A stretch of DNA of 64,000 nucleotides from Rectinemataceae bacterium. Its GTDB lineage: Bacteria > Spirochaetota > Spirochaetia > Treponematales > Rectinemataceae. The notes below the pieces were generated by a model. It saw nothing but the letters and a program-made list of their open reading frames with translations, did not search any database and was not told the origin of the DNA. A program made the translations under genes and the position numbers. The stretch spans positions 5,791-69,790 of the forward strand of contig DATKVC010000001.1 in NCBI GenBank assembly GCA_035530275.1, read 5' to 3'. Positions 8,998 to 61,700 of this stretch are shown piece after piece; position 1 is the first letter of the stretch; every line of letters begins with the position of its first letter.

Positions 8998-9055
8998 TCA
9001 TATTTCGCCCACGCGATCGCAGGATCGCGCATGTATCGATCACGGAGGAAAGCGC

Positions 9056-30451: not shown

Positions 30452-32014
30452 ATGGCATTCCAGTCAAAGAATTCAGGAGCCGCCAAGCCGGCTCAGACCC
30501 CGGCCAAGAAGGCCGGATCGGACACACCGCGCAGGGGAATAAAAAACCCCTTCATCTATTTCGGCACCATCGCCTTCCTCGTCCTCGTCATCGTCGCCTT
30601 CGTCTTCTTCCCGACCAGCGCGAGCGTCGGCGGCGCCGGGGCCCTCTCCTTCGGCAGCTACGCCGGCAGGCCCATTTCCTACACCCAGAATTCCTATATG
30701 GTGCAGCAGGTCCAGGCCCTGAGCCAGGCGAACCCGGCCACCGACAACAACGAGCTCTCCAACCAGCTCAGGAACTACCAGATTTACCGGGCGGCTTTCG
30801 AAAGCTCCGTCATCCACGAAGGCATCCTCGACGCGGTCGACCACGCGGGCATCGTCGTCCCCGATGAGATCATCGACGCGGAAATGGCGAAGATGCCGCA
30901 GTTCCAGGAAAACGGGGCCTTTTCGCCCAAACTCTACCAGAACACGCCGAGTTCGCAGCGCCTCGACATACGGGCCCAGCTCCGCGACCAGTACCTCACG
31001 CAGAGCTATACCAATGCTGTCTATTCCATAAAGCCCTCGTCGAAGGAGAACGCCTTCATCGCCGACATGGCGAAGGAGACGCGGACCATCGACTACGCCC
31101 TCTTCCCCCTCTCCGCCTATCCCGATTCCGAACTTGTCGCCTGGGCCCAGTCGAATGCGGGCCTATTCCGACGCCTCAAACTGTCCAGGATCACCATGGC
31201 CAAGGAAGCCGAAGTCGCAGACCTCGCCAAGAAGATCGCCGGCGGACTGGCTTTCGCCGATGCCGCGAAGAAGTCCTCCACCGATTCCTGGGCGAGCCAG
31301 GGAGGCGACCTCGGCCTTCGCTACTTCCACGAGCTTCAGGGCGACCTCTCCTCGAAGGCGGATGCGGATAAGGTCGCCGGCCTGAAGAAGGGCGAGATCT
31401 CGGTTCCGATCAAGACCTCGGCCGGCTCCTGGGCAATCTTCAAGCTCGAGGATGACATCCTCGCCCCCGCCTTCACCGATCCTGCCGTGCTCGCGGACGC
31501 CCGCAGTTACATGACGCAGACCGAAAAAGGAAAGATCGAGGATTGGACCCTCGCCAAGGCCAAGGCCTTCGCGGCCCTTCCCGCCGCCGATTTCGACCGA
31601 AACGCCAAGAAAGATGGTATTGTGACGAAATTGGCCGGCCCCTTCTCCCTCGACTACGGCAACGCCACGGTCAATCTCTACGGCCAGAACGCACCCCTCT
31701 TCACGCCCCTGCCGACTTCGGGAGCCCCCGAGCTCTCGGCGGCCTCGACCAGCGACAAGTTCTTCCAAGCGGCCTTCGGCCTCGCGCCGGGAGCCGTCTC
31801 CGACCCCTTCGTCCTGGGCGACAACGTCATGGTCGTCAAGGTAAAGGAGGCCGGCGTCTCGACGGACGCGGGTCTCGTTTCGGCCTATTATCCCTATTTC
31901 GTCCAGCGCACGATCGACGGCGATCTCCGCTCCATGTTCCTCGCGAGTCCCAAGCTCAAGGACCGCTTCATGGATGTCTACTTCAAGTACTTCAGCCCCA
32001 AGCCCACGAAATAA
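30452..32014 (+). CDS. membrane-anchored PpiD/SurA-like peptidyl-prolyl isomerase (parvulin domain)
   Basis: Start at MAFQSKNSG (ATG 30452). N-terminal TM anchor and a parvulin-like segment (GGDLGLRYF...GEISVPIKTSAGSWAIFKL). Confidence 0.65.
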   Translation: MAFQSKNSGAAKPAQTPAKKAGSDTPRRGIKNPFIYFGTIAFLVLVIVAFVFFPTSASVGGAGALSFGSYAGRPISYTQNSYMVQQVQALSQANPATDNNELSNQLRNYQIYRAAFESSVIHEGILDAVDHAGIVVPDEIIDAEMAKMPQFQENGAFSPKLYQNTPSSQRLDIRAQLRDQYLTQSYTNAVYSIKPSSKENAFIADMAKETRTIDYALFPLSAYPDSELVAWAQSNAGLFRRLKLSRITMAKEAEVADLAKKIAGGLAFADAAKKSSTDSWASQGGDLGLRYFHELQGDLSSKADADKVAGLKKGEISVPIKTSAGSWAIFKLEDDILAPAFTDPAVLADARSYMTQTEKGKIEDWTLAKAKAFAALPAADFDRNAKKDGIVTKLAGPFSLDYGNATVNLYGQNAPLFTPLPTSGAPELSAASTSDKFFQAAFGLAPGAVSDPFVLGDNVMVVKVKEAGVSTDAGLVSAYYPYFVQRTIDGDLRSMFLASPKLKDRFMDVYFKYFSPKPTK

Positions 32015-32021
32015 GGGGCCT

Positions 32022-33665
32022 GTGGGTTCGGGCGATCGCCTCGACGGCGACCGCCCCGCCGATCCCGCGATCGTCTTCTGTTCCGGCGAGGAGAATATCC
32101 TCGCGAAGGGCCGCCTCCTGTACCCGGAGCGCGGCCCTTCGCGTTTTGCCCGGCGCATGGCGGAGGTCGCCCTCGAGGAATCTCGCCGCTCGGGGCCGGC
32201 AAGGCTTATTCTCGTCCTCTCGCCTGGCCTGTGGTTCGGCGTGACCGAGCTTCTCGCCGGATTGCCCGCCGACGGAGCCCTGCTCTGCGTCGAGACCGAT
32301 CCGGAACTCGCAGCCCTCTCTCGCGCGCACATGCCCGCGGGCCTCCTCGCCGATCGACGTGTGGGATTCGTCGCAGGCCGGGATCCCCGAGCCTGGGTCG
32401 AGGCCGCGGCGAGGCTCGGCCGATTTCGGCGCTGCCACCCGGTGCGGCTTTCGGGGGGCGCCGATCTGGACCAGCAGTCCTACCGAGACGCTGCCTTCGT
32501 CCTCGACGAGGATTTCTCCGCCTATTGGCGCAATCGAGCCTCGCTCGCGGCCATGGGCCGCCTTTGGGTCAGGAACATATTCCGCAACCTCTCTCGCCTG
32601 AAAGAGATGGCGCAGCGAACCTTGACGCCCATCTCGGGGGCGACCCTCGTTTGCGGGGCCGGCCCCTCGCTCGAGACCGCCCTTCCCCTCGTCGCCCGCC
32701 ATAGGGATAAGCTCTTCGTCGTGGCGGCCGACACTGCCGCCGGCCCCCTCGCCCTCGCGGGCATCGTGCCCGACCTCGTCGTCTGCCTCGAGGCCCAGAT
32801 CTGGAACCTCAGGGACTTCCTTCCGCTCGAAGGAGCGGAGTTCGCCCTTCTCGCCGACCTGTCGAGCCACCCTTCGAGCTTCGGGATTCCGGGTGCGATC
32901 AATTCATTAAGTATTGTGCGCATTTTCGCGGGAGCCCTGATGGAAAGGCTCCGGAGCCTTGGTCTCCCCGCCCTCGACCTCCCGCCCCTCGGATCGGTCG
33001 GTGTCCAGGCCCTCCATGTCGCCTGGCGTCTCGGAGCCGACCCGCTGTTCGTCGCGGGCCTCGACTTCGCCTTCGAGCCGGGCAAGACCCACGCCCGGGG
33101 CAGCCCCGCCCTCCTCGCCGACCTAGCGACGGCGTCTCGCCTTTCGCCTCTAGGTTCCCGTCCTCTCGCCACGAGCTTTCGGGAAGGAGTGAGGCCGGCA
33201 AACCGCGAGGGGAGCCTGACCGATCCCGTGCTGTCACGTTATGCGGAACAGGCGGCCGAGGAACTCGGGATTTCGGGAGCGAAGGTCTTCGATCTGAGAG
33301 GAGACTTCGGCCTGCCCTTGGGGGCCGAGCGCCTCGATGCCGCTTCAGCGAATCGACTCCTGGGCGAATTGCCCTCACGGAGGGCGTGGGGGCGCGGGGT
33401 GCAGGACAGCGGCGATACCGCGGCCCGAGCCCGTGAATTCCTCGCGGCCGAATCGAAAAGGCTGCTCGTCCTCGAAAAAATGCTGAGGGGCGGCTCGCGT
33501 CCTGACGATTCCACGCTGCTTGGCGCAATCGCCGAGCTCGATTATCTCCTCTGGCCCATGCCCGACGCCGAGCGCATCGCGGCCCTGCCCCAGGATCTCC
33601 TCAACCGTGTCCTCGTCGAGACTGAATACTGGCTCGCCCAACTCGCCGATATTACGGCCCTCTAG
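32022..33665 (+). CDS. DUF115 / MptE-like (motility accessory factor Maf-like) protein
   Basis: TLVCGAGPSLETALPLVARHRDKLFVVAADTAAGPLALAGIVPDLVVCLE is the DUF115 core. GTG start at 32022 with AAGGGG upstream. Confidence 0.65.
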   Translation: MGSGDRLDGDRPADPAIVFCSGEENILAKGRLLYPERGPSRFARRMAEVALEESRRSGPARLILVLSPGLWFGVTELLAGLPADGALLCVETDPELAALSRAHMPAGLLADRRVGFVAGRDPRAWVEAAARLGRFRRCHPVRLSGGADLDQQSYRDAAFVLDEDFSAYWRNRASLAAMGRLWVRNIFRNLSRLKEMAQRTLTPISGATLVCGAGPSLETALPLVARHRDKLFVVAADTAAGPLALAGIVPDLVVCLEAQIWNLRDFLPLEGAEFALLADLSSHPSSFGIPGAINSLSIVRIFAGALMERLRSLGLPALDLPPLGSVGVQALHVAWRLGADPLFVAGLDFAFEPGKTHARGSPALLADLATASRLSPLGSRPLATSFREGVRPANREGSLTDPVLSRYAEQAAEELGISGAKVFDLRGDFGLPLGAERLDAASANRLLGELPSRRAWGRGVQDSGDTAARAREFLAAESKRLLVLEKMLRGGSRPDDSTLLGAIAELDYLLWPMPDAERIAALPQDLLNRVLVETEYWLAQLADITAL

Positions 33666-47319: not shown

Positions 47320-47391
47320 CATCCCCATGGGTAATCGAAACCCAGTTGCCGGGATGAAAACCCGGTGTCCTAACCGCTAGACGATGGGGAC
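47320..47391 (-). tRNA. tRNA-Glu (anticodon UUC), 72 nt, CCA not encoded
   Basis: Hand-folded cloverleaf: acceptor GTCCCCA/TGGGGAT, D arm GTCT-AGCGGTTA-GGAC, anticodon arm CCGGG-TTTTCAT-CCCGG, T arm TGGGT-TTCGATT-ACCCA, discriminator G. Confidence 0.9.
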
Positions 47392-48836: not shown

Positions 48837-49970
48837 TTACTTGGTAGGCGTAGAGGCGCTGAAGTCGGCGTTCGTATCCTGCTTCTGCTTCTCGAGGTAG
48901 CGCTCGACCTGGACGTTGCCGAAGCTCCTGGACTCGAGGATCTTCCTCTCCTTTTCGCGGTCGCTGATGATACCCCAGACGGCCTCATCGTTGATGTCAC
49001 GGACGGGGTCGAGGACGGCGCGGTCATAGAGGATCTTCACATCCTTGAAGTAGGCGACGAAATCGCCTCCGACCGCATTCGCGTCGCGGGTGATCACGAA
49101 GCCGGCGAGCTTCACGAAGGGGACGGACGCCGGATAAAGGGGGTCGATCCTGAGCTCGCGGTTGCGGACCTGCGAAACGTACTGGGGATTGTCCCAGCGA
49201 AGTTCCTTCCAACCGTCGAAATTGAGGTAGCCCATGAAAACCATGTGCTCGTCGTTGTTCTGGTCGGTGAGGACGGCGTAGAGCCCGTGGGGGAACTGGA
49301 GACCGCGGACCGTGACGGCGACGGACTTGAGGGTTCCGACGTTTTTCACGATGCCGTAGGCGGTGATGACCTTGCTGGTCGTGTCGTAGCTGCCCTCGAA
49401 GCGGCTCAAGTTGGCATTGATGGGATCGGTGGCGGGAGCCGCCGCCGCGGTCGTCCCCGTGGCAGCCGTACCGGAGGCCGCGGTGGCCCCGACGGGCGTG
49501 ATCACGCCCTGATCGTCAATCGTCGCCTTGGGTTCGAAGGCGGGAATCTCGAAGGGGGGATTGATGCGCGCCCAGCTGTTGAAGGGAGCGGTCGGGAAAT
49601 GGATCCTGACGCCGAAGACAGTCTGTCCGGCATACTGCTTGGCGCTGGCGGAAACGGCGGCTTCCTTGGTGTAGGAAAGCTCGTTGTTGAGGATGTTCTG
49701 GGACGAAGAGGCTAGAAGCACATCCCAGTTGCCGATCGCGAGCGAGGTCCGCATCTGCTTTTTCTGCTCGTCCGTGAAGCTGGCGCCGGCGGTGGACGAG
49801 AAGTCCATCATGGTCGCTCGGTTCTGGGTCATCACTCCCTGGTTGGCGGGATCGGGAATGATGTCCGCCTTGAGGAGGTTGAAGTCCATGAGGACGGCTT
49901 CGTCGGCGGACAAGGCGACGCCACCCACGAAGAGAAGAGCAAGCGCGATTACGAAGAACTGCCTTCTCAT
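48837..49970 (-). CDS. flaA: flagellar filament outer layer (sheath) protein
   Basis: Signal peptide, then SADEAVLMDFNLLKADI. Size and composition match spirochaetal FlaA as I recall it; flagellar context. Confidence 0.7.
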   Translation of the reverse strand: MRRQFFVIALALLFVGGVALSADEAVLMDFNLLKADIIPDPANQGVMTQNRATMMDFSSTAGASFTDEQKKQMRTSLAIGNWDVLLASSSQNILNNELSYTKEAAVSASAKQYAGQTVFGVRIHFPTAPFNSWARINPPFEIPAFEPKATIDDQGVITPVGATAASGTAATGTTAAAAPATDPINANLSRFEGSYDTTSKVITAYGIVKNVGTLKSVAVTVRGLQFPHGLYAVLTDQNNDEHMVFMGYLNFDGWKELRWDNPQYVSQVRNRELRIDPLYPASVPFVKLAGFVITRDANAVGGDFVAYFKDVKILYDRAVLDPVRDINDEAVWGIISDREKERKILESRSFGNVQVERYLEKQKQDTNADFSASTPTK

Positions 49971-50026: not shown

Positions 50027-50054
50027 AGTATAATCTCCGAAAGACCTTTGTCAA
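50027..50054 (-). promoter_or_regulatory. sigma70-like promoter for flaA (TTGACA-N16-TATACT); the -35 overlaps the stop codon of the upstream gene
   Basis: Hexamers read on the minus strand. AAAGGAG RBS lies before ATG 49970. Confidence 0.5.
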
Positions 50055-50593
50055 TTCTTTTCACGGTTTTTCCGGGCGGTTGGCATCGCTTGAGCGAGTC
50101 CCTCGTCCCAAGGCTGGAAGCCCCCTATTGTGATGACGACATGCCTAACCTGGTGCAGGCCGAGACGAAGCGTCCTTTCCAGGGCCGTAAGGGCGAGCCG
50201 AAGGTCGCTTCCGGGAATGAGGGCGGCTTCTTCGCCGATATCGACGAAGAGGGTTCCCTTCCGATAGAGGAGCCCATTCAAGGCCGTTCCCGATGGAACG
50301 GCGGGCAGAAGATTGGGATTCGCGGGGCCGAGAAGGAATTCCGCGACGAGACCCCGGGCCTTCTCTTCGGTGCCGGAACGCCTGGGCATGTAGCGCAGCT
50401 CCCCTTGGAGGGATTTTCCGCCGGCATTCGGGAAATAGAGCAGGTAGCCGCTATTCTTGTCGAAAATCGCCCAGGATCCGAGCGAGACGAGGAAGGCGAG
50501 CACTAGAAGAAAGGCGAAAAGACGAGTTGGAGGGGAAACCCAGACGAAAAACTGCCGTAGCCGCCCGAGAGCACGTTCGGGAATATTCTTCAT
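50051..50593 (-). CDS. GerMN domain protein (membrane-anchored)
   Basis: TM anchor then a GerMN-like domain (LYFPNAGG...AEFLLGP...TLFVDIG). ATGA overlap with the amidase gene. Confidence 0.6.
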   Translation of the reverse strand: MKNIPERALGRLRQFFVWVSPPTRLFAFLLVLAFLVSLGSWAIFDKNSGYLLYFPNAGGKSLQGELRYMPRRSGTEEKARGLVAEFLLGPANPNLLPAVPSGTALNGLLYRKGTLFVDIGEEAALIPGSDLRLALTALERTLRLGLHQVRHVVITIGGFQPWDEGLAQAMPTARKNREKN

Positions 50594-51711
50594 TTGTCCG
50601 CGGGGCCTCTCTGCTTTTCGAAGTCGCTCACGAAATCGACGAGGCCAGTATATATGCCATCGGAGATCTTCTTCAAGTAATCATCCGTCGAGAGCAACTT
50701 CGCCTCTTCCGGGTTGGTGACGAAGCCCATTTCGACGAGGACCGAAGGCATCTTCGCGTTCCGCACCACGAACCATTCCTCCGCCCGGATGCCGCGATTG
50801 GGGCTGCTGGCGCCGATGCCCTGTTGGAGACGGGAATCGATGTCGCGAGCGAGGATGATGCTCTCCGTCGTGAACTCCTCCTCGAGCATCGCGTTGAGAA
50901 TGGGCGCGATCGAGCGATCGGAGCCTTTTACCGAGGAGCCGTCGATGACGGTCCGGCGGTACTCGGGGTTGAGGTACCAGATCTCGAAGCCCTTCGCCGT
51001 CTTATTAAAGGAGGCGTTGGCGTGAATCGAAACATAGATGATGGCTTCGTTCTTGCCGAGATCGACGGAGTTGGCCATCGCGACCCGCTGCTCGAGGGTC
51101 GGGTAGGTGTCGCCTTCGCGGCTCAAGAGTATCCGCTTGTCCGGGAAGCGCATCGCCAAATCGTCGCGGACTTCCCTCCCCACTTTGAGGGCGATGTCCT
51201 TTTCGACGACCCGCAGCGTCGTGGAGCCGAATCGGTGCTCTCCTACGGCCCCCGTATCCTTCCCCCCATGGCCGGGGTCGATGAGAATGGCGGCGATGGA
51301 AAAATGGGAGGCCCGGGCCGCGTCCGCCGCGCCGAAGCGCGAGCCGATGGCCTCGAGCGAAGCGGGGCTGAACAGGGGACCCGTCTTTCCCAAGACCGGC
51401 GGATCGATCGTCAGGCGTTCGGAAAAATCCCAGAGCGCGAGGGGCAGGCCCACGGCGAAGGCGAGACGGTCGCCGTTTTTTCCGATCCAGCCCGAGGCGG
51501 TCAGGGGGTCCCAGGAAAGCCTCGCCTTCTGCCCTCCGAGCCAGGTAGACAAGGAAATCGTCGCCGAGGATGAGGGTGCGGATGCGACCGGCGAGGCAAG
51601 GGCGGCATCGGGGGCCTGTCGGCTCACGGCCGGCTGGGCCCCGCCTTCGGGCCATCCGGAAAGAACGGCGATGGCGCCGAGACAGGCCGCGAGGACCGTT
51701 CCTGCTTTCAC
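50590..51711 (-). CDS. N-acetylmuramoyl-L-alanine amidase (Amidase_3, AmiC-like)
   Basis: ILIDPGHGGKDTGA, VSIHANA and VLVEMGFVTN. GTG start at 51711 gives a signal peptide and a GTGA overlap with the upstream stop; the ORF-track start at 51900 overlaps the ATP-grasp gene. Confidence 0.85.
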   Translation of the reverse strand: MKAGTVLAACLGAIAVLSGWPEGGAQPAVSRQAPDAALASPVASAPSSSATISLSTWLGGQKARLSWDPLTASGWIGKNGDRLAFAVGLPLALWDFSERLTIDPPVLGKTGPLFSPASLEAIGSRFGAADAARASHFSIAAILIDPGHGGKDTGAVGEHRFGSTTLRVVEKDIALKVGREVRDDLAMRFPDKRILLSREGDTYPTLEQRVAMANSVDLGKNEAIIYVSIHANASFNKTAKGFEIWYLNPEYRRTVIDGSSVKGSDRSIAPILNAMLEEEFTTESIILARDIDSRLQQGIGASSPNRGIRAEEWFVVRNAKMPSVLVEMGFVTNPEEAKLLSTDDYLKKISDGIYTGLVDFVSDFEKQRGPADK

Positions 51712-53300
51712 GGAAGGGTTGCGCCCTTTCGAAGGCAATCGAGGACATAGAGCCCTCCCTGGGCGCCGCCGACGATCAGGGCCTTCCAGAAGGCGCGACC
51801 GACGAGGGGGGAAGCCGGGGAGGCCTCCGCCGACAGGAGGTAGCCCCCTCCCCTTTCGAGGGCGAGACGCGCGGATTCCGCTAGGCTCCTTCCCGACCAA
51901 TCGCGGAGTTCAAGCGTCTCGGCGAGGGGAAGGGCCGCGACGGCGATGGGCGCAGCCGCAGTCGTCGCGCGGAGGACGCCCTCGGGGAGGGCATCGATGG
52001 CAGCCTCGAAATCCGCGTCGACTGCGAAGGCGCGGGGAGGCCAGGTGGCTCCGTCGAATCCCGCCTCGGTAAGGGCGCCGCGCAGGAAGACGGAAGTCGC
52101 CTCGTTCGGAGCTTCGAGCCGAATGAAAATGGATCTGACTGCGGCCTCGGCCGCGCGGGCGGCCCCTTCGCGATCGGGGGCCTGCGAGATCAGATTGCCG
52201 CACTTCTCGACATTGTTCGAGGGAAAGACGACCTCCTCCCCTTCCGCAGTCCGAAGGAAGAGATCCTTGATGAAGGGGGCGTTCCGGGCCGCGCGAAGGC
52301 CCTCGATGCCGGCGACCTTGCCCGGAATGGAAATGAAGGCCCGTTCGGCCGAGTGCCAGCCGCGATCGATCCGCGGTCCTTCGGGTCGAAGGCCGGCGGC
52401 GAGGAGGAGGGCGTCGCGGGTGAGATCGATGCCCGAGGCGTAGGGATAGGTCCAGCCCGACATGTAGCCGCCCGAAAGCCTCGCGGCGATCTCGCCGATC
52501 ATCGGACGACCCCTGGCGAGACTCCATTTCATGTCGCCCTTGGCCGCCCCATGGGAGAGCCCCAGGCTGCGAAGGCCAGCCTCGAAGACGGCGAGTATGT
52601 CCTTCTTCATTCGCTCGTCGATCGAGGTCGGCAGGCTATGGCCGAGTTCGACGAAGTAGGGCGAAAAGGCGATGTGACGGTCGGCTAAGCCCCTGATTTC
52701 GACCTTTCCGTCGTAGACGAGGGCGTCGATGGAGAACTCCGGTCCCTCGATGTATTCCTCGACGATGGCCCGACCCGTCCGGCTGAGCGGCAGCGCTGCC
52801 TCCAGGGCCATAGCCAGCTCGGCCTCATTCCGGACGAGGCGACAGCCGCGAGCACCCATGTTGTCCGCTGGCTTGACCACGAGGGGAAACCCGAGGCCGC
52901 GACGAGCCTCGGAAAGGAGGCCCGACTCGAGGTCCCGACACTCGAAGAAGAGGGGCGAGGAAAGGCCGGCCTCGGCGAAACGCGCACGCATGAGGAGCTT
53001 GTCCGATGCGGCAAGGGCGGCCTCGGGTCGATGCCCCGGAAGGCCGAGGCGATCGGCGAGCCACGCGACATTCGAGGAAAAATCCGTGCCCGCCGTGAAG
53101 ACGGCATCGGCGCCGAGAGCGGAGGCGGCCGCGAGAAGCCCCTCGCGATCCTTGAGGTCGACCGCGAAGAAGCGATCGCAGTACGCCGCGCCCGGGGCCT
53201 TGGGATTGCCGTCGGCGGCGCCCACCTTCCATCCGAGTTCCCTGGCTATCGCCAGGGCGGGGATCTGCATCACCCCTGCGCCGAGCATGAACAAGGTCAT
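51708..53300 (-). CDS. ATP-grasp ligase with a roughly 130-aa C-terminal extension of unknown function
   Basis: PLVVKPADNMGARGCRLV, IVEEYIEGPEFSIDAL and GEIAARLSGG are ATP-grasp motifs. AGGTGGA RBS upstream. Confidence 0.75.
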   Translation of the reverse strand: MTLFMLGAGVMQIPALAIARELGWKVGAADGNPKAPGAAYCDRFFAVDLKDREGLLAAASALGADAVFTAGTDFSSNVAWLADRLGLPGHRPEAALAASDKLLMRARFAEAGLSSPLFFECRDLESGLLSEARRGLGFPLVVKPADNMGARGCRLVRNEAELAMALEAALPLSRTGRAIVEEYIEGPEFSIDALVYDGKVEIRGLADRHIAFSPYFVELGHSLPTSIDERMKKDILAVFEAGLRSLGLSHGAAKGDMKWSLARGRPMIGEIAARLSGGYMSGWTYPYASGIDLTRDALLLAAGLRPEGPRIDRGWHSAERAFISIPGKVAGIEGLRAARNAPFIKDLFLRTAEGEEVVFPSNNVEKCGNLISQAPDREGAARAAEAAVRSIFIRLEAPNEATSVFLRGALTEAGFDGATWPPRAFAVDADFEAAIDALPEGVLRATTAAAPIAVAALPLAETLELRDWSGRSLAESARLALERGGGYLLSAEASPASPLVGRAFWKALIVGGAQGGLYVLDCLRKGATLP

Positions 53301-53310
53301 GTATCCACCT

Positions 53311-55227
53311 TCAATTTCTGATACGATTGCCGTCCGGGGAGCTCGGGAGGTCGGCGCCGCCGCCTTCCTTGAGGCCCCGCTCGCGGATCGGGGGCAGCTC
53401 CCTGGGTTCCCCCGTCTGCGACACCTTCACCGCGTAAAGCTCGAAGGTGTCGCCCAGGCCGAAGAGGCGCGAGACCCGGTCGAAGAGGCCGAGGCAGAGC
53501 TTCCGGAATCGCCCGCGCATGATGCCGCCTTCGCGGAGGAATGGGAAGCGCTCGGAATGATGACCGGTTATACGGATCTTCTCGAGCCTGAATCCGTGGA
53601 AGGCCAGGGGAACCCGCGCCCGCGAGGGTTCCCAGATGGTGAAATGATCCTCGGGGCTGGCCGAGAAAAACGAAGCGGGAGCGAAGCGGGCCGAGACTCC
53701 CTCACCCGAGGGCGTGGATATGGCGAGTATTCCGCCCGTTCGCAGGAGGGCCGAGGCGTTGCGGAGCACGGCATCGAGATCCTCGAAGTGTTCGATGACA
53801 TACCAGAGCGAGATGCAGTCGAAGGGTCCGCCGAAGCTGCCCGCCACGCGAATGTCGGCGAAGTCGCCGGGAACGGCGGGGAGGCCGAGTTCCTCGCGGA
53901 CGTAGCGCGCGGCCTCGGTGGAAATATCGATGCCGTAGGGTTCATGGCCCCGAGCCTTCGCCGCCTCGAGATAAGGCCCGTAGGCGCAGCCGACATCGAG
54001 GAGGGAGAGTCCCGCGGTTCGCCCCAGGGTTTTCGCGGCCAGGGCCTCGATCGAAGCCAGACGCGTCGCCGCGAAGGATACGAGGGCGGGCCAGTCGTCG
54101 AGATAGCTGCGACCGTATTGCCTTCGGTATTCGTCGAAAAAGTAGGTGGCTGTATAGGGCGCCTTCCTGGTCGAGCCGAAACGCGTGAGGTAGAGCATTC
54201 CGCAGGACTGGCAGCGGAAATAGCTCTTGTTCGCCTCCCGATGGATAGCCTTTCGCTCGCGACTCCCGCAGAGGGGGCAGGCGACGGGGCCGCTCGTCTC
54301 GAGGCTCCCGACCAGGGCGGCAATGGATTGGGGCGCAGCGGGCAGAATCGCCGCTGCCCTGGCGAGGGTCGCCGGGACATCCCCGATCCAGCGCAGGAGG
54401 GAGCGGCGATCGATCGTGCCGACGCCGATTTCCGGAAAGCCCGCCCGGCGCGCGAGGGCCCGGTGATAGCTCGAGGGATTGAAGAGGATGACCCCGCAGC
54501 CCGACCAGGCCGCTTCGAAGGCGGTAAGGCCGAATTGGGTGAAGACGAGGTCCCAACCGTGGAGGTGCTCCTTGAGATCCTGCACGGGACCGAGGACGGT
54601 AACGCCCTCGAGACCGAGGGGCGGGGCGCCTCGCCTGAGGGCGCCAGAGACGAGGGTGAGGTCGGAGGCCTCCACGAGGCCGAGGGAAAGGAGGGCCCGT
54701 GAAAGCGGCAGGGCGAGGCCGGCGGGGTCTTCGCCGCCGAAACTCACGAGAATTTTCCGGAAGCGAGAGGGAGGCGTACGACGGTGTTGGGGCAGGTCGA
54801 GAAAGCCGAGGGAGGAGCTGTTGGCCGAATCGCAGTTCCCTCGCCTATGCGCTTTTTCAAGACGGGGAAGGATGTCGATGAGGTAGGAAGCGGCCTCGCG
54901 GGCCTCCCCCCCCTCGTCGAGCGAGGCGACCGGGGCGATGCTTTCCCAAAAGCCCAGTTCGTCGTAGCTCGTCGCGCGCCGATCGAGAAGGACGAGATCC
55001 CAGGCTCCCGCCGTCGCAAGATCGTCGACGATGCGCACTCCCTCGATTTCGCGGGTGTAGGAGAGGCGGAGTTCGGCCGCGCTCCAGCCCTGGTCCGTCT
55101 TGGTCGCGGGAAGATAGACCGCGGCCGTGTAGCCGAGGCTGCGTGCCAACCTGAAGGATCGGACGATATGCCCCGAGCCGTTGCCCTTGCTCACGGAGGG
55201 AACGAGGAGGACCCTGATGCTCGTCAT
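53311..55227 (-). CDS. fusion protein: PseG/SpsG-like GT-B domain + Zn-ribbon + class I SAM methyltransferase
   Basis: N-terminus VLLVPSVSKGNGSGHIVRSFRLA and FGGEDPAGL (PseG/SpsG-like). Middle CPLCGS...FRCQSCG. C-terminus LLDVGCAYGPYL...GIDIS...ISLWYVIEH (SAM-MTase motifs I-III). Confidence 0.7.
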   Translation of the reverse strand: MTSIRVLLVPSVSKGNGSGHIVRSFRLARSLGYTAAVYLPATKTDQGWSAAELRLSYTREIEGVRIVDDLATAGAWDLVLLDRRATSYDELGFWESIAPVASLDEGGEAREAASYLIDILPRLEKAHRRGNCDSANSSSLGFLDLPQHRRTPPSRFRKILVSFGGEDPAGLALPLSRALLSLGLVEASDLTLVSGALRRGAPPLGLEGVTVLGPVQDLKEHLHGWDLVFTQFGLTAFEAAWSGCGVILFNPSSYHRALARRAGFPEIGVGTIDRRSLLRWIGDVPATLARAAAILPAAPQSIAALVGSLETSGPVACPLCGSRERKAIHREANKSYFRCQSCGMLYLTRFGSTRKAPYTATYFFDEYRRQYGRSYLDDWPALVSFAATRLASIEALAAKTLGRTAGLSLLDVGCAYGPYLEAAKARGHEPYGIDISTEAARYVREELGLPAVPGDFADIRVAGSFGGPFDCISLWYVIEHFEDLDAVLRNASALLRTGGILAISTPSGEGVSARFAPASFFSASPEDHFTIWEPSRARVPLAFHGFRLEKIRITGHHSERFPFLREGGIMRGRFRKLCLGLFDRVSRLFGLGDTFELYAVKVSQTGEPRELPPIRERGLKEGGGADLPSSPDGNRIRN

Positions 55228-55961
55228 GCCGCCTCCGGACCTCCGGCCGTCGAGCGCTCCCTGATCGCACCCAGGATCCGCGCGCTCGGAATCGGGCTCC
55301 CGTCGTAGTAGGCCCCGTAGAGGCCGCGGACGAATTCGTAGTCCCGCTGCGTATCGACCGTGACCCTACCCTCGGGAAAGCGATAATCCGCCGGCGCATC
55401 GGGGCGGTCGATGGAAAATCGCCCCGGATTGTTGTAGAGGTGGGGGCAGACGTGCTCGCGCTCGTAGGCGTCGCGGGCATCCCTTTCCGCCAGAAGAAGG
55501 GCCGCGGCGTTGACCGATTCGACGCCCATGCCCAGGGGAAGGCCGACGTGGCTCGCGTAGTCGGCCTCGCTGCCTTCGCGGCTCGCGATGAGAAGATTGG
55601 CGGCCTCGTGGCAGACCAGGGGATTGTCGCCCGTGGCGCGGATGACGCGGTCGAGGCCGAATTCCCTGATGACCATGCAGTAGCGCCCCAGGACATCCTC
55701 TTCGGGGCCCACGAGGAGTTCGAAGCCGTGGCGCCGGGCTATCGGCGCCAATTCGCCCGCGCTCGTAGGCTCGGTGGCGAGGACGCGGAGATCGGCCTCG
55801 ACGAGGGCCAGCCGCGCGAGAACCATGTCGAGGAGGGTCGCGCCGCCGAGGGGAAGGAGGGCCTTGCGCGCGAGCCGGGTCGACCCGAGGCGGGCCTGGA
55901 CCACGACGCCTACGCGCCGCGCTGCCGCGACTCGGCCTTGCGCAGTTCCGCCTGGGCTCAT
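55224..55961 (-). CDS. SpsF/PseF-like cytidylyltransferase (CTP_transf_3 type)
   Basis: VGVVVQARLGSTRLARKALLPL, EEDVLGRY, RATGDNPL and EHVCPHLY. ATGA overlaps at both ends. Confidence 0.8.
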   Translation of the reverse strand: MSPGGTAQGRVAAARRVGVVVQARLGSTRLARKALLPLGGATLLDMVLARLALVEADLRVLATEPTSAGELAPIARRHGFELLVGPEEDVLGRYCMVIREFGLDRVIRATGDNPLVCHEAANLLIASREGSEADYASHVGLPLGMGVESVNAAALLLAERDARDAYEREHVCPHLYNNPGRFSIDRPDAPADYRFPEGRVTVDTQRDYEFVRGLYGAYYDGSPIPSARILGAIRERSTAGGPEAA

Positions 55962-56923
55962 TCGCCTTCCTCCTCCCAAAGCTCCACGAGACGCTCGGCG
56001 TCCTCGCGAAAACGGAAACGGTTGATTTCGACCCAGGCTCGGGCTGCGCCGAACTCGCCCAGGGCCCCGACGATGCCGCCCTTCCTGCTCAGGAGATACT
56101 CGAGGAAGCGCGACCGAGGCAGGACCGAGGAATCGCCGCGATGTCGCGGAGCGATGTTCTTGAGCCAGAACCAGCGATAATCGGCATCGATCGTCGAATC
56201 GTCCTGAGGGGGCCCCTCTTCATAGGCGACGCGGAGGGACTGCGAAAGCCTGATCTCCTCGCCCCAGAGCCAGGCGCGGAAACCGAAGTCGAGCCGCTGC
56301 CAGAAGGGATTGGCGAGACGACCGTCGAAGCCGCCGAGGAGGATGAAGCGTTCACGGCTATAGATGCCGCAATAATCGAAGGGATAGAGGCTCCTCGCCC
56401 CTTCTTTCGCCGCCGACAGGGGCAGGATGCGGAGGCTCGATCCCTGAAGGGCCGGGGTCGCCGATACCGGCAGGAGATTGCCGTCGGAGCCCGAAAGGAA
56501 GGGGGCGAGACAGACCCTGTCCTTCTCGACGATGCGTTCGAGAAAGCGGCCGGAGAGACCCGCCGTCGCTATGTTCATGTCGTTCCAGAGCACGAAGACG
56601 AAGGGGGAAGCCGATTCGCGGACGGCGATGTTGATGCGGGTGCCCGTGTCGGCGGGGGCGCCGAGGAGGATGAAGCGGAGCTTCGGGAAGCGTTGGCAGA
56701 GGCTCTCGATGTCGAAGAGCTCCCCTCCCTGTTCCTCGACGAGGGTGATCGAATCGAAGCCGAGACGGTCGAAGTCCTTGAGGGCTTCGGCCCGGAAGAG
56801 CCGCGGCCCCCGATCGAGGATGACGAGGGAGACGGGCACGCCCGAGCCCGAGCCTCCCCGCGCCCCCCCGACGACCGTGTAGGGCACGGCCGAGTCGCTA
56901 AGCATTGTAGGTATAGTATTCAT
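55958..56923 (-). CDS. GT-A (GT2)-like protein lacking an obvious DxD motif
   Basis: VSLVILDRG...FVFVLWNDM...LDFGFRAWLWG pattern. Start uncertain (56923 or 56905); either one overlaps the SPASM gene stop. Confidence 0.5.
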   Translation of the reverse strand: MNTIPTMLSDSAVPYTVVGGARGGSGSGVPVSLVILDRGPRLFRAEALKDFDRLGFDSITLVEEQGGELFDIESLCQRFPKLRFILLGAPADTGTRINIAVRESASPFVFVLWNDMNIATAGLSGRFLERIVEKDRVCLAPFLSGSDGNLLPVSATPALQGSSLRILPLSAAKEGARSLYPFDYCGIYSRERFILLGGFDGRLANPFWQRLDFGFRAWLWGEEIRLSQSLRVAYEEGPPQDDSTIDADYRWFWLKNIAPRHRGDSSVLPRSRFLEYLLSRKGGIVGALGEFGAARAWVEINRFRFREDAERLVELWEEEGE

Positions 56924-58442
56924 CGCAGTTCCTGCAGGCCTCGGGTAGTTCGCCTTCGACATGGAGACGGTGCCAGCCTTCCCCAGCCGCCCAAAGACGG
57001 GCGAAGGCCGCCTCAAAGAAGGCCTCGTCGCCCGCCTCGCCCTCTCCGAGCCCCTCGAAAAGGGAGCCGAGGGACGCCGCCGCACCGCTCAGGTCCCGGC
57101 AGGGCGGCACCGTGCCGTCGAGAAGGACCGTGAGATCGCGCCTGAGATGCCAGCAGGGATGGCGCTTGAGGGGAGAGAGATCGGCGACGGCCAGCTCGGG
57201 CAGGCGCGAGGCGAAGCGCGAATACTTCTGCACGATGACCCCTTCGGTCTTGGCCTTCCAGCCTCGCCAAAAGGCCTCGAGCTCGGCCTCGTTCTCGCGG
57301 TGCCTGACCATCTGGGGATGGAAGCGCTCGGGCCAGAGGGCGCCGAGACGGCTCGCGCATCGTTGGGCCTCCTCCCAGCCCTCGCCGCGCAGACGGGCGT
57401 AGGTAGCGCTCTCGGCGGCGTCGAGGGAAAGGATCCAGTCGATGCGATCCCTGTGCCGCGCGGCGATGGCCTCGAGGCTGCCTTCCTTCCAGCCGAGACC
57501 CGAAGTCTCGACGATGAGGGAGAGGCCCTCTCGGGCGAGGACGGCATCGACGAGGGAGGGAAAATCGGGGTGAAGGGAGGGCTCGCCCCAGGGTGAGAGA
57601 TCGACGACGGCGTCGCCGGCGAAGGCTGCCAGTCCGCCCATCATCGCGGCGAAGCGATCCGCGGGCAGGAAGTCCCGGCGAGAGAGGATGTCGCCGCCGA
57701 AGGAAGGCCAGGGACAGAGCTTGCAGGACTGGAGGCAGCCCCCTGTCACCTGGACCGAAACAAAGGCCGGCAGGCTTCGCAAAAGATCATCGCGCTTGGG
57801 AATGATGTCGAGGGCGCTCGCCGCGTCGCGAAGACCTGCTGCCATCAGGCCTTCGACGAGGAGGACGTTGCGCTTGGTGTCGCAGGCGAGACTGATCCGC
57901 CGATCGCGGAGGTCTCGCGGCGAAATTTCTGTTTCGATGTCGAAGGCGTTGATGTCCCGTTGGATTACATTGAAGAGCCAGTTTCTCTCCGGCGCCATGG
58001 GACTCTTTTCCGCCAAGGCGACGAGGGCGGGAAGAATTCGCGGATGGAGGATCTCGACGGCCAGGCCGAGGGGATAGCCGTCCGCGAAGGAATAGTCGGC
58101 CCTGTAGCGCCGATGGGCTTCGAGCATCTTTCCGGCAAGAGCGGGGTCGAGGAAGGGTTCGTCGGCGCGAACGAAGACCAGGGCCTCCGGCCCTTCCGGC
58201 AGAGAGGCGGTAAAGGCGGCCGCCTCCGCGAGGAGGTCCCGGTCGCTCCATTCGGCCTTTGAGCGCCGGAGCAGCCCTCTCTCGGGGGTGGCTACGCGGC
58301 CTTCGAGGAGGATGCTGCCGCAGAGCTCGGGCAGGGCCGCCACAAAGGAAAGGACCCTGTCGAAAGCCGAAGCGCCGCCGGAAAGGGGCGACAAGGCCCT
58401 TTCCGTGATCGAACCGGCATAGATGATGACTGCAGTTCTCAT
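56898..58442 (-). CDS. spiro-SPASM-type protein: SpsF-like nucleotidyltransferase domain + radical SAM + SPASM
   Basis: N-terminus AVIIYAGS...VRADEPFLDP...FADGYPLGLAVEIL. Then CLQSCKLC (CxxxCxxC) and a C-terminal Cys-rich region CWHLRRDLTVLLDGTVPPC...CRNCDEYY. Start at MRTAVIIY (ATG 58442). Confidence 0.7.
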   Translation of the reverse strand: MRTAVIIYAGSITERALSPLSGGASAFDRVLSFVAALPELCGSILLEGRVATPERGLLRRSKAEWSDRDLLAEAAAFTASLPEGPEALVFVRADEPFLDPALAGKMLEAHRRYRADYSFADGYPLGLAVEILHPRILPALVALAEKSPMAPERNWLFNVIQRDINAFDIETEISPRDLRDRRISLACDTKRNVLLVEGLMAAGLRDAASALDIIPKRDDLLRSLPAFVSVQVTGGCLQSCKLCPWPSFGGDILSRRDFLPADRFAAMMGGLAAFAGDAVVDLSPWGEPSLHPDFPSLVDAVLAREGLSLIVETSGLGWKEGSLEAIAARHRDRIDWILSLDAAESATYARLRGEGWEEAQRCASRLGALWPERFHPQMVRHRENEAELEAFWRGWKAKTEGVIVQKYSRFASRLPELAVADLSPLKRHPCWHLRRDLTVLLDGTVPPCRDLSGAAASLGSLFEGLGEGEAGDEAFFEAAFARLWAAGEGWHRLHVEGELPEACRNCDEYYTYNA

Positions 58443-58690: not shown

Positions 58691-58706
58691 CCACTATATA
58701 AAGTGT
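58691..58706 (+). promoter_or_regulatory. NrdR box 2 (ccactatataaagtgt), 32 bp from box 1
   Basis: 14/16 match to the consensus. The spacing of about three helical turns is typical of tandem NrdR boxes. Confidence 0.65.
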
Positions 58707-58731
58707 GACTGAGATACGAGGGGGGAGCGAT

Positions 58732-61700
58732 ATGAAAATTGAGCGTTTCTTCACTACAAAAGGAAATGGACCCTACGAGGGCATCGAATGGGTGGCTCGG
58801 ACGAGCGAAATCCGCAATCCCGACGGCAAGATCGTCTTCAAGATGGAAGGCGCGATCGTTCCCGCGAGCTGGAGTCCCATCGCCTCCGATATACTCGCGC
58901 AAAAATATTTCCGCAAGGCAGGGGTGCCCGCGGACCGGGCCGAGGAGTGGCAGAAGCATGTTCCCGCCTCGCAACTCGCCCTCGCCGGGCCCTCGCCCAA
59001 GCCGGGCGCCGAACACGACGCCCGACAGGTCTTCCACCGCCTCGCCACGACCTGGGTTCTCTGGGGCAAGTCGGAGGGCTATTTCGACTCGAAAGAGGAT
59101 GAAGAAGCCTTCTACGACGAGCTCCTCTACATGTTCGCCCGCCAGATGGCGGCCCCCAACAGCCCCCAGTGGTTCAACACGGGCCTCAACGCCGCCTACG
59201 GCATCGAAGGCCCCGCCCAGGGCCATTACTACGTCGATCCCAAGACAGGCGAGGTGACGAAGAGCGCCTCGGCCTACGCCCGCCCCCAACCCCACGCCTG
59301 CTTTATCCTCGATGTCCAGGACGACCTCGTCAACGAGGGCGGCATCATGGACCTCGTCACCCGCGAGGCGAGGCTCTTCAAATACGGATCGGGTACGGGC
59401 TCGAACTTCTCCAAGATCCGCGGCCTCAACGAATCCCTGTCCGGCGGCGGCGTCTCGAGCGGCCTCCTTTCCTTCCTCAAGATAGCCGATCGCTCGGCCT
59501 CGGCCATCAAGTCGGGCGGGACCACCCGACGAGCCGCCAAGATGGTCATCCTCGACGACGACCATCCCGACATCGAGACCTTCGTCGACTGGAAGGCCGA
59601 GGAGGAGTTCAAGGTAGCCAGCCTCGCGGCCGGCTCCGCCCTCCTCCGCCGCCACGCAGCCGACATCCTCACCGCCTTTCACGCGCCCGGCATCGACGAG
59701 GACAATCGCCTTTCCTTCACCGCCAACCCCGCCCTACGCCGAAGCGTCCGCGACGCCCTTCGCTCGGGCGTGCCGGCTCCCTGGATCCATCAGCTTCTTT
59801 CGAAAATCCGCCAGGGCGACGAGAGCCTCGAGATGCCGCACTACGACACCGCCTGGGAGGGCGAGGCCTACAACACCGTCGCGGGACAGGCTTCCAACAA
59901 TTCGGTCAGGCTTTCCAACGAATTCATGCAGGCCATGCTCGAGGACGGCGACTGGTCGATGACGGGCCGCATCAACGGCAAGACGACGAAGACCATCAAG
60001 GCCCGCGCCCTCTGGGATCGCATCGCGAAGGCGGCCTGGCAGTGCGCCGATCCGGGCCTCCAGTTCCACGGCACCGTCAACGAATGGCACACCTGCCCCG
60101 CCGACGGCGAGATCCGCGGTTCGAACCCCTGCTCCGAGTACATGTTCCTCGACGACACGGCCTGCAACCTCGCCTCCCTCAATCTCCTGACCTTCTTCGA
60201 CGCGGAGAAGGAAAGCTTCGACGACGTCGCCTACCGCCACGCCATCCGCATCTGGACCACCGTCCTCGAGATCTCGGTGGTGATGGCCCAGTTCCCCTCG
60301 AAGGAGATCGCGAAGCGAAGCTACGAGTTCCGCACCCTCGGCCTCGGCTACGCCAACCTCGGTTCCCTCCTCATGCAGATGGGCCTCGCCTACGACTCCG
60401 ACGAGGGCCGGGCCGTCGCGGCCGCCCTCTCCGCCATCCTCACGGGCGAGGCCTACGCCCAATCCGCGCGGATGGCCCGCGAGTGGGGCCCCTTCATCCG
60501 CTACGCCGCCAACCGCGACCATATGCTCCGCGTCATCCGCAACCACAGACGCGCGGCCTGGAACGCGGCCGACGCCGAGTACGAGAGCCTCACCGTCAAG
60601 CCCCAGGGACTCCGCGAGGAATTCTCGCCGAAGAACCTCGTCGACGCGGCTCGCGATTCCTGGGACGAGGCCCTCGCCTTGGGGGAGAAGCACGGCTACC
60701 GCAACGCCCAGGTCACCGCGATCGCCCCGACCGGTACGATCGGCCTCCTCATGGACTGCGACACCACGGGCGTCGAGCCCGACTACGCCCTCGTCAAATT
60801 CAAGAAACTCGCCGGCGGCGGCTACTTCAAGATCATCAACCAGAGCGTCCCCCCGGCCCTTCGCGCCCTCGGCTACGCCGAGACCGAGCTCGGAATCATC
60901 GAGACCTACGCCCTCGGCCGCGGCACACTCCGCGGCGCCCCCGGCCTTTCCTTCGAGTCCCTCCTCGCCAAGGGTCTGCCCCTCGCCTCCCTCGAAAAGG
61001 CCGAGGCCGCGATCAAAGGCGCCTTCTCCCTGGAGAGCTGCTTCGCCTCCTACGTCCTCGGCGCAGAGGCCTTCGCGGCACTCGGCATCCCCGAGGTCAC
61101 CTACAAGCTCCCCGGCTTCTCCCTGCTTCGCCATCTCGGCTACAGCGAGGACGAAATCGAGGAGGCCGAGCTCTGGGCCTGCGGCACGATGGGCGTCGAG
61201 GGAGCGCCTGGCCTCGATCCGGCGCATTACGGCGTCTTCGACACGGCCACCCCCTCGGGCAAGCGCGGCACCCGCGCCATAGCCTGGGAGGCCCACATCG
61301 CCATGATGGCGGCCGTTCAACCCTTCATAACTGGTGCTATTTCCAAGACGATCAACATGCCGAACACGGCGAGCTACGAGGACGTGAAGGGAGCCCACCT
61401 CCTCGCCTGGCGCTCGATGCTCAAGTCCATCGCCCTCTATCGCGACGGCTCCAAGCTCTCGCAGCCCCTGGCCGCCCTCGCTCCCGGAGCCGACCTCGTC
61501 GCCGACTCCATCGTCGCCCTGCAGACAGGCGATGAGGAGGACGAGGAGCCCCGGCAGTCCCCGCAGGGCGAGGCCCAGCAGCGGCTCTTCCGCGAAGAGG
61601 CGCCCGAGCTCCCCGGCCTGCCCGCGGCCCCCCGCGGAAGGCGCCGCGCCCTGCCCAACCGCCGCGCCGGCTACACGCAGAAGGCCAAGATCGCCGGTCA

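Follow-up and report, generated by a model that had tools for sequence, protein, structure and literature searches.

The described systems closest to the locus reported here are the PseB-C-H-G-I-F pathway of Campylobacter and Helicobacter, together with Maf, and the sps genes of Bacillus subtilis (SpsA, SpsF, SpsG). The locus lies in a 64,000-nucleotide stretch from a Rectinemataceae bacterium (GenBank assembly GCA_035530275.1, contig DATKVC010000001.1, positions 5,791 to 69,790), referred to below as the window, and comprises seven head-to-tail genes, g1 to g7, at minus-strand positions 50051-58442, followed by flaA (Table 1). It shares with those pathways a PseG/SpsG-like domain, putatively of glycosyltransferase fold B (GT-B), and an SpsF-type cytidylyltransferase; its protein of glycosyltransferase fold A (GT-A) can be compared with SpsA, the window contains a Maf-like gene, and a flagellar filament gene is adjacent. 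Unlike those pathways, however, the block and the window are without the dehydratase, aminotransferase, acetyltransferase and synthase, and the PseG-like and PseF-like parts of the block fall far below the family cut-offs. The PseG-like part is moreover fused to a methyltransferase and, in Treponema, to the cytidylyltransferase as well, and a radical S-adenosylmethionine (SAM) enzyme and an ATP-grasp ligase are integral members of the block.

A second point of comparison is the flagellin glycan of Treponema denticola. In this species FlaB is O-glycosylated at four or five Ser/Thr residues. The glycan is a nonulosonic acid (NulO) of the pseudaminic acid (Pse) type with an O-methylated, amide-linked C6 acyl group, namely an N7 2-methoxy-4,5,6-trihydroxyhexanoyl group, and FlaB glycans contact the FlaA sheath (PMC13439194). 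By our own arithmetic, a Pse diamino residue (232.1), an acetyl group (42.0) and a C7H12O5 acyl group (176.1) sum to 450.2, equal to the mass of the glycan. Such an amide-extended flagellin NulO needs a ligase and a methyltransferase on top of the core, enzyme types that the present block would supply. Another amide-extended NulO is the legionaminic acid with an N-methyl-glutamyl group on the flagellin of Clostridium botulinum. We know of no biosynthetic genes for amide-linked acyl extensions of flagellin NulOs that have been demonstrated by experiment, and our literature search found no route to the N7 acyl group of the FlaB glycan, though the structure of that glycan is known.

The region upstream of flaA has also been studied. 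Borrelia burgdorferi bb0665-bb0667 and T. denticola TDE1716-TDE1712 show the same order of amidase, small gene and flaA, and in T. denticola a sigma-70 promoter drives co-transcription of flaA and four upstream open reading frames (ORFs) (PMC9481697). In Borrelia, cell division is affected by the amidase operon, bb0665-bb0667, whose amidase is of the cell-separation type (PMC11863449); the same paper cites Yang & Li 2009 for co-transcription of the orthologous Borrelia region. The focus of these studies was on the amidase and flaA alone, and none of them took up g1-g4.

We propose, with a probability of roughly 0.5, that the pathway for the FlaB pseudaminic acid glycan is split and that g1-g5 are its late and tailoring branch, specific to spirochaetes, because the enzyme set fits the glycan, the Pse core is absent locally and NulO synthases are encoded elsewhere. 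Beyond the Pse core, the FlaB glycan needs an O-methyltransferase, an amide-forming ligase acting on a sugar-acid carboxylate, and 3-deoxy hexonic acid chemistry. Judged by its predicted domains, the cluster provides a PseG-like hydrolase, an enzyme of the cytidine monophosphate (CMP)-ulosonate synthetase type, a fused methyltransferase, a carboxylate-amine ligase and a carbohydrate-type radical-SAM enzyme. An earlier note on this DNA had set two hypotheses side by side: (a) a modified nucleotide sugar for the flagellar filament and (b) a peptidoglycan or glycan modification. The former is the better supported, since the chemistry of the T. denticola FlaB glycan calls for these extra enzyme types, and it can be sharpened to that glycan; the latter is less supported and is retained for g5-g7.

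The same note had reported core NulO genes to be missing nearby, and a scan of all called genes in the 64-kb window agrees, finding no PseB, PseC, PseH or PseI. Pse core genes were likewise not seen within 10 kb in related contigs with Pfam annotation (L081-L091), a search that did not extend to the 80 genome loci described below. The NulO synthases of T. pallidum and T. denticola, which have been used in complementation tests, are encoded elsewhere in the genome (bioRxiv 10.1101/2022.03.25.485807). An ordinary split NulO cluster, with the remaining Pse genes adjacent in relatives, is thus not what the annotated contigs contain, although the synthases do exist elsewhere in treponemes; because of the latter, we regard the system as a split NulO pathway with unusual tailoring.

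The proposal builds on features shown for the DNA and its relatives: deep synteny, the g1/g2 overlap, the identities of the genes and the folds of their products, the g1/g3 paralogy, and the g3-g4 fusion. The closest relatives of the window's proteins carry the names Rectinemataceae or Spirochaetota. A genome scan with the spiro-SPASM alignment, the family to which g1 belongs, found relatives in at least 575 species-level genomes, and the best 80 loci were analysed by tblastn with eight window proteins. A search of representatives contributed the best 150 of 471 matches, whose clusters bear only the names 'Treponema sp.' or 'Spirochaetia', and related contigs with pre-computed domain annotation (L081-L091) served as an extra set. 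Essentially every sufficiently long locus among the best 80 had the order g1-g2-g3-g4-g5-g6-(g7)-flaA, which persisted down to 37-40% g1 identity and across loci of 35-70% G+C. The order recurred in the domain-annotated contigs, where a Germane gene separates the amidase from flaA. Conservation of gene order, which the earlier note had singled out for checking, thus extends to ~90 spirochaete loci in which the cluster adjoins flaA, and this synteny goes far beyond chance. Junctions in related loci are mostly 4-nt overlaps. In the window they read ATGA (g2/g3), ATGA (g3/g4), GTGA (g5/g6) and ATGA (g6/g7), while the g4/g5 junction, TGA-AGGTGGATAC-ATG, is a 10-nt gap containing AGGTGGA. The tight coupling is real, and both the junctions and the coordinates of the seven minus-strand genes are as first described.

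The g1/g2 junction deserves separate mention. Here the g2 start ATG falls within GAT-GAA (Asp-Glu) of the invariant g1 C-terminal motif CDEY(Y/H)T(Y/F)N. The Asp codon at this position is GAT in 75/75 loci, where the Asp codon usage of the individual genes predicts 31.6; most of these genes use GAC more often than GAT for Asp. Counted from the start in the overlap, g2 is 315-324 aa long in most (~65) of 73 loci, and independent gene callers give products of 319-321 aa. Given the codon count and the agreement of the g2 lengths, the 26-nt overlap is dual-coding and kept by selection, which argues for coupled translation of g1 and g2. The overlap had been put at 8-26 nt; the upper value is correct, with the start ATG present in all 75 loci. 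The overlap is a clean case of selection on a synonymous site preserving an internal start codon. The last g1 codons in the overlap are also uniform at synonymous sites (TAC in 69/75 loci, ACC in 65/75, AAC in 67/75). This uniformity holds across the 35-70% G+C loci and fits selection on the g2 N-terminus, MNTIPTT.

The g1 product matches TIGR04321 over its full length (positions 2-510 of 510; 470 bits, cut-off 250). We found no publication on spiro-SPASM or TIGR04321, in keeping with the earlier remark that the family has no assigned function. The radical-SAM model PF04055 is just reached (29.6 bits against 29.5), and the CX3CX2C motif, C236/C240/C243 (57714-57737), is invariant in 77 sequences. 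Residues 225-514 comprise the radical-SAM core and a Twitch-like domain with C430, C448, C503 and C506, which are the only other conserved cysteines in the alignment (C430-x12-G443-x4-C448 and C503-x2-C506). With 17.3 bits, the SPASM model PF13186 stays under its cut-off (21.5), and the seven-cysteine SPASM pattern (CX9-15GX4C plus CX2CX5CX3C...C) is not present in g1. By this alignment, the cysteine pattern fits a Twitch-like single auxiliary cluster and not a full SPASM domain; the SPASM label given earlier thus holds for the family but not for the domain.

Structure prediction points the same enzyme towards carbohydrate chemistry. An AF2 model of g1 built from the 77 sequences (predicted local distance difference test, pLDDT, 94; predicted TM-score, pTM, 0.91) has a C-terminal portion of 290 residues that superposes on the whole of BtrN (4m7t) in Foldseek, with a TM-score normalised to target length (TMt) of 0.71 and a root-mean-square deviation of 4.2 Å. 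The peptide maturases SuiB, CteB, SkfB and anSME superpose less well (TMt 0.41-0.54), and BtrN is also the top sequence match in the PDB. BtrN, the butirosin 2-deoxy-scyllo-inosamine dehydrogenase, is a Twitch radical-SAM dehydrogenase acting on a carbohydrate-like small molecule, and g1 resembles it in the CX3CX2C motif and in four cysteines arranged C-x17-C...C-x2-C, a spacing that we take to equal that of the BtrN auxiliary-cluster ligands. The two differ in that g1 has an extra N-terminal degenerate cytidylyltransferase domain of ~205 aa, in that identity is ~15%, and in that the g1 family is curated as 'SPASM'.

This N-terminal domain (residues 1-205, ~57828-58442) is SpsF-like. It aligns with g3 in hhalign with a probability of 97% (E 2.6e-11, 187 columns) and superposes on the Leptospira borgpetersenii cytidylyltransferase 6oew with TMt 0.70. 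The loop Q-x-R-x-x-S-x-R-x-x-x-K, invariant in g3, appears in g1 as G-S-L-x-x-x-A-L. The N-terminal half of g1 is thus a g3 paralogue that lost its cytidine triphosphate (CTP) loop, and we interpret it as a docking module that no longer catalyses a reaction and would bind a ligand that is nucleotide-linked or a ulosonic acid. One related contig (L082, coverage 7.5x) encodes an 801-aa protein, P0330 (10001-12406), that was considered as a g1-g2 fusion and rejected: it is g1 with a low-complexity insertion, on a contig without g2. The insertion, ~300 aa of Q/A/D/S-rich repeat, destroys CX3CX2C; decay of this gene copy or an error of assembly may be the cause. The contig keeps g3, g4, g5 and the amidase; upstream lie two flaB genes, flaG and fliD, and the FlaB glycosylation motifs (VEVAQL in one, VEFSQL in the other) are uninformative.

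Sequence models place g3 and g4 in the neighbourhood of NulO enzymes without making them canonical members. The g3 product scores 95.6 bits with CTP_transf_3 (PF02348; cut-off 22.6), keeps an intact N-terminal CTP-binding loop (Q22, R24, S27, R29 and K33, invariant in the alignment), and has 6oew as its closest solved structure (E 5.9e-37); the Leptospira origin of 6oew is the one indirect hint on how far the cluster may extend among spirochaetes. The PseF model TIGR03584 matches 1/22 g3 orthologues (E 5.5e-4, below cut-off), and g3 was accordingly rejected as a canonical PseF; KdsB-type models, those of the CMP-Kdo synthetase (Kdo, 3-deoxy-D-manno-oct-2-ulosonic acid), match 22/22, all below cut-off. 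The g3 product belongs to the clade activating 3-deoxy-2-ulosonic acids, yet is no canonical PseF. The g4 product begins with a PseG-like, putatively GT-B domain (residues 1-300, ~54313-55227), followed by a four-Cys zinc ribbon (residues 317-342; CPxC...CxxC in the alignment), a class I SAM methyltransferase (~390-510) and a conserved C-terminal extension. For 16/16 orthologues PseG (TIGR03590) is the best family of the N-terminal part, with a best E of 3e-17 and all below cut-off; the window's g4 scores 24 bits against a cut-off of 153.55, so that a canonical PseG was rejected here too. The GxGxGH..R motif, the site of the catalytic His in PseG, is invariant (G15, G17, G19, H20, R23), and the PDB profile match to PseG 3hbm is weak (E 0.42). 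In PDB profiles the C-terminal half matches generic methyltransferases (3cc8, UbiG) as well as TcaB9 and KijD1, which are C-methyltransferases of nucleotide sugars. In many Treponema contigs g3 and g4 are a single protein of 807-846 aa, as they are in T. pallidum (TP0288_289; PMC3265458), and we therefore conclude that g3 and g4 act in one pathway.

The g5 product scores well above cut-off with ATP-grasp_4 (47.9 bits against 27) and LAL_C2 (55.3 against 29.4), and its PDB profile matches are led by 4dim (3.9e-37), the L-amino-acid ligase BL00235 (8.9e-36) and BacD. With a conserved C-terminal extension of ~130 aa, it is predicted to be an ATP-grasp ligase of the L-amino-acid-ligase type. For g2, neither Pfam nor NCBIfam nor PDB sequence profiles gave a match. 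Its AF2 model (pLDDT 72, pTM 0.78) has as top Foldseek hits ppGalNAc-transferases, RmlT, LARGE1 and the chondroitin polymerase K4CP (E down to 4e-9, TM ~0.5, probability 1.0), so the protein is predicted to have a GT-A glycosyltransferase fold. The position of the DXD motif reads W-N-D, and W-[N/S/D/T]-[D/N/E] across orthologues, with D115 more than 90% conserved. Our literature search found no published function for g1, g2, g4 or g5.

Of the remaining genes, g6 carries Amidase_3 (154.5 bits against 27, below the CwlD, AmiA, AmiB and AmiC equivalog cut-offs) behind a hydrophobic N-terminal signal or anchor. The g7 product has an N-terminal transmembrane segment and a Germane domain (42.5 bits against 23), which is found also in a short gene at the same position in L085, L086 and L088. 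The flaA product matches the FlaA model PF04620 (245 bits against 25). On the whole, the domain calls of the earlier note are borne out by curated models, the GT-A call for g2 alone coming from structure prediction. A promoter for flaA itself had been suggested as well, and TTGACA-16-TATACT (50054-50027), a near-consensus sigma-70-like candidate matching 11/12 positions, is the best site in 11.6 kb and overlaps the g7 stop codon. A strong terminator-like hairpin (48815-48791) closes flaA.

These features bear on how far the seven genes form one unit. Resequencing of T. pallidum merged TP0284+0285, TP0286+0287 and TP0288+0289 into three genes (PMC3265458), and the annotation lists a SPASM iron-sulfur protein under TPASS_0285 and a SAM methyltransferase under TPASS_0289 (PMC4403809). 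The three merged genes match g1, g2 and the g3-g4 fusion. The species thus keeps g1, g2 and g3-g4 in a 1.1-Mb genome (PMC4403809, PMC3265458). They lie far from its amidase and flaA, which are presumably TP0247 and TP0249. TPASS_0245 and TPASS_0246 are not ATP-grasp proteins (PMC4403809). Two termite Treponema loci have unrelated genes after g1-g4. Since g1-g4 stand alone elsewhere and flaA has its own promoter candidate, the block is a supra-operon of three parts and not one unit: a cytoplasmic sugar-tailoring set (g1-g4, usually with g5), the periplasmic g6-g7, and flaA. A single indivisible seven-gene pathway, as the operon might first suggest, does not agree with g1-g4 occurring alone in T. 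pallidum and termite Treponema, nor with g6 being a cell-separation amidase in Borrelia.

If g1-g5 do tailor the FlaB glycan, the route might run as follows, with the confidence in each single step lower than in the pathway assignment, as we infer the substrates and the order of steps. The PseB-, PseC- and PseI-type core steps and the Maf transferase would be encoded outside the cluster. The g5 ligase would couple the 4-amino group of a uridine diphosphate (UDP)-4-amino-4,6-dideoxy-hexose intermediate with a C6 3-deoxy-hexonic acid; g5 would take the place of PseH, because the acylated 4-amino position would become N7 of the nonulosonate. The g4 methyltransferase would install the 2-O-methyl group, and the diverged PseG-like half of g4 would take off the nucleotide. 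PseI would then condense the product with phosphoenolpyruvate, and g3 would make the CMP-activated sugar. In g1, the dead cytidylyltransferase domain would hold a nucleotide-linked or ulosonic-acid substrate for the BtrN-like half, which may carry out H-abstraction (oxidation or deoxygenation) on the sugar or the acyl chain. Presumably made in fixed proportion to g1 through the 26-nt overlap, g2 is probably its partner, and both may act on the side chain or the CMP-sugar. In the periplasm, g6 and g7 would be a cell-separation amidase and its GerMN partner, and the FlaA sheath would pack against the glycosylated core, with flaA having a promoter to itself and, in other species, being transcribed by read-through as well.

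The Maf/DUF115-like gene pointed out previously is indeed present, at 31974-33665 (PF01973, 77.3 bits against 34.6), unlinked and ~17 kb from the cluster. Its protein is a candidate flagellin nonulosonic-acid transferase that may use the pathway product, a role resting on what is known of the Maf family. Elsewhere in the window, and likewise unlinked to the cluster, UxuA (mannonate dehydratase, 17254-18318, minus strand) makes 2-keto-3-deoxy-gluconate, a six-carbon 3-deoxy-ulosonic acid that, once reduced and O-methylated, would be identical to the acyl group on T. denticola flagellin; this may be coincidence. A FliG homologue with a ~95-aa N-terminal extension (22888-24153, plus strand) is, besides flaA, the sole flagellar structural gene in the window.

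Several points weigh against a FlaB glycan branch. We infer the link between these genes and the glycan, whose structure comes from T. denticola and not from a Rectinemataceae-like lineage. The g3 product is a non-canonical PseF (TIGR03584 matching 1/22 orthologues), and the N-terminal half of g4 stays far short of the PseG cut-off. It is not obvious where the synthesis of a 3-deoxy-2-O-methyl-hexonoyl group would need a BtrN-type dehydrogenase, nor has g2 an obvious step, Maf already covering transfer to flagellin. Finally, g5 always directly precedes the amidase, and it does not follow g4 in T. pallidum and termite Treponema. The Borrelia amidase shares its operon with bb0665, which, if bb0665 is a g5 homologue, would speak for a wall-related role of g5.

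Some of these points lead to the peptidoglycan. In such a scheme g5, alone or with g1-g4, would modify a cytoplasmic wall precursor, which we consider unlikely; an equally unlikely sequel is that the amidase and GerMN protein then act on the modified wall at cell separation or flagellar insertion. As a possibility, the ATP-grasp enzyme g5 might add the bridging glycine to the L-ornithine of the stem peptide, or the glycosyltransferase, methyltransferase and radical-SAM enzyme might modify the glycan strand. ATP-grasp ligases can indeed add side-chain residues to stem peptides, as D-aspartate ligase does, and g5 is coupled to the amidase by GTGA here and by -4 nt overlaps in most loci. The effect of the Borrelia amidase operon on cell division (PMC11863449) would fit as well, as would a Mur-ligase gene directly upstream of g1 in one locus. 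This last gene, however, was dismissed as a conserved partner because it is present in 1/86 loci. Moreover, g5 groups with the L-amino-acid ligases BL00235 and BacD and not with Ddl-type or known wall ligases, g3 is of the ulosonic-acid type, the N-terminal half of g4 is of the PseG type, and g1-g4 lie apart from the amidase in T. pallidum and termite Treponema (PMC3265458). The product may instead be another glycoconjugate, that is, a CMP-activated methylated Kdo-like or ulosonic sugar destined for a glycolipid, FlaA or another periplasmic protein and not for FlaB. This has a modest chance of being right: g3 orthologues score best against CMP-Kdo synthetase models, the g2 fold is that of protein or polysaccharide O-glycosyltransferases and could make g2 a Maf-independent transferase, and flaA is adjacent. 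Yet all the KdsB-model matches are far below cut-off, and to our knowledge T. pallidum has neither lipopolysaccharide nor Kdo but keeps g1-g4. The FlaB glycan is, in addition, the only structurally known spirochaete glycan that needs methyl, amide and ulosonic chemistry together (PMC13439194).

A further explanation makes no appeal to a shared product. The gene order may be frozen, with unrelated housekeeping genes held together by overlapping frames and a shared promoter so that rearrangement is costly. The flanking ribonucleotide reductase and RelA_SpoT-tetratricopeptide repeat (TPR) genes are syntenic without an obvious functional link, and the block splits in some Treponema while g1-g4 are retained. 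We nevertheless find it quite improbable, as the g3-g4 fusion, the g1/g3 paralogy and the selected g1/g2 overlap speak for g1-g4, at least, being linked in function. The least credible alternative is maturation of a ribosomally synthesized and post-translationally modified peptide (RiPP), in which the radical-SAM enzyme, ATP-grasp ligase and methyltransferase would modify a peptide or protein such as FlaA or a small precursor. Most members of the SPASM family mature peptides, RiPP clusters can include ATP-grasp ligases as well as methyltransferases, and Foldseek lists SuiB, CteB, SkfB and anSME for g1. The domain architecture of g1, however, ruled it out as a peptide maturase: it has no peptide-binding or RiPP recognition element (RRE)-like domain, its N-terminal domain has a nucleotidyltransferase fold, its C-terminal part carries the four Twitch-like cysteines only, and BtrN is the better structural match (TMt 0.71 versus 0.41-0.54). 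The cluster is also rich in sugar-nucleotide enzymes. No short precursor-like gene is called within the block in nine annotated related contigs, in which no dedicated small-ORF search was made.

Table 1. Features of the locus and of its surroundings, in window coordinates.
Feature	Position	Strand	Basis
g1, spiro-SPASM protein	56898..58442	-	514 aa; TIGR04321 470 bits, AF2 model
g1/g2 overlap, 26 nt, dual-coding	56898..56923	-	g2 ATG inside GAT-GAA of g1 CDEY motif
g2, predicted GT-A-fold glycosyltransferase-like protein	55958..56923	-	321 aa; AF2 model and Foldseek
g3, SpsF-like cytidylyltransferase	55224..55961	-	245 aa; CTP_transf_3 95.6 bits
g4, PseG-like domain, zinc ribbon and methyltransferase	53311..55227	-	638 aa; Methyltransf_23 70 bits, weak PseG match
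g5, predicted L-amino-acid-ligase-type ATP-grasp ligase	51708..53300	-	530 aa; ATP-grasp_4 and LAL_C2
g6, N-acetylmuramoyl-L-alanine amidase (Amidase_3)	50590..51711	-	Amidase_3 154.5 bits
g7, GerMN (Germane) domain protein	50051..50593	-	Germane 42.5 bits
Sigma-70-like promoter candidate for flaA	50027..50054	-	TTGACA-16-TATACT, 11/12
flaA, flagellar filament outer-layer (sheath) protein	48837..49970	-	PF04620 FlaA 245 bits
Intrinsic-terminator-like hairpin 3' of flaA	48791..48815	-	11-bp stem, then T run
RelA_SpoT-domain and TPR protein, downstream neighbour of flaA	47493..48746	-	Pfam
Maf-like (MptE-like/DUF115) protein	31974..33665	+	PF01973 77.3 bits

The neighbours of the block are conserved to differing degrees. 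Divergent from g1 lies the gene of a ribonucleotide reductase of class II (B12-dependent) that carries a TSCPD domain (58705-62331, plus strand); it occupies the same position in 37 loci, and the 262-nt region between the two genes has no Rfam match. An Rfam scan of the whole window gave as its sole match a transfer RNA (tRNA) gene at 47320-47391 (minus strand) and found no leader or riboswitch near the operon. The RelA_SpoT-TPR gene follows flaA in 27 loci by tblastn and in L087 and L089, at least 29 in all; its protein, with the TPR repeats at the C-terminus, is small alarmone synthetase-like, and no functional link to the cluster is evident. In L085, a Treponema contig, the Mur-ligase-family gene (8525-9961) lies 40 nt upstream of g1. 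Farther away, a MazF/PemK-like toxin ORF (41324-41632, minus strand) overlaps an AbrB/MazE-like antitoxin ORF (41626-41883, minus strand), as judged from the translations by eye, and this toxin-antitoxin-like pair sits in the window's stretch of lowest G+C (~58%, against ~63% for the window).

As sequence, the block is not new: well-known pathogens carry it, and a curated family name exists for one of its members. What is new is its reading as a NulO pathway for a flagellin glycan with radical-SAM, ATP-grasp and methyltransferase tailoring. The hypothesis is readily testable, as T. denticola is amenable to genetic manipulation and the glycan can easily be followed by its 450.2-Da mass tag. A more specific and tentative version, about which we are doubtful, would make spiro-SPASM the first radical-SAM enzyme of NulO biosynthesis. 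In it, a dead CMP-sugar synthetase copy would dock the substrate, g1 and its coupled GT-A partner would build the deoxy-sugar-acid side chain, and g1-g5 would be the missing route to the N7-acyl Pse needed for filament assembly, including that of T. pallidum. If the pathway assignment is true, the orphan family TIGR04321 and an unannotated GT-A family would each gain a function, and radical-SAM chemistry would join NulO tailoring. Motility has a central part in how the agents of syphilis, periodontitis and leptospirosis invade tissue, and the block would then represent a set of spirochaete-specific enzyme targets, kept even in the minimal genome of T. pallidum.

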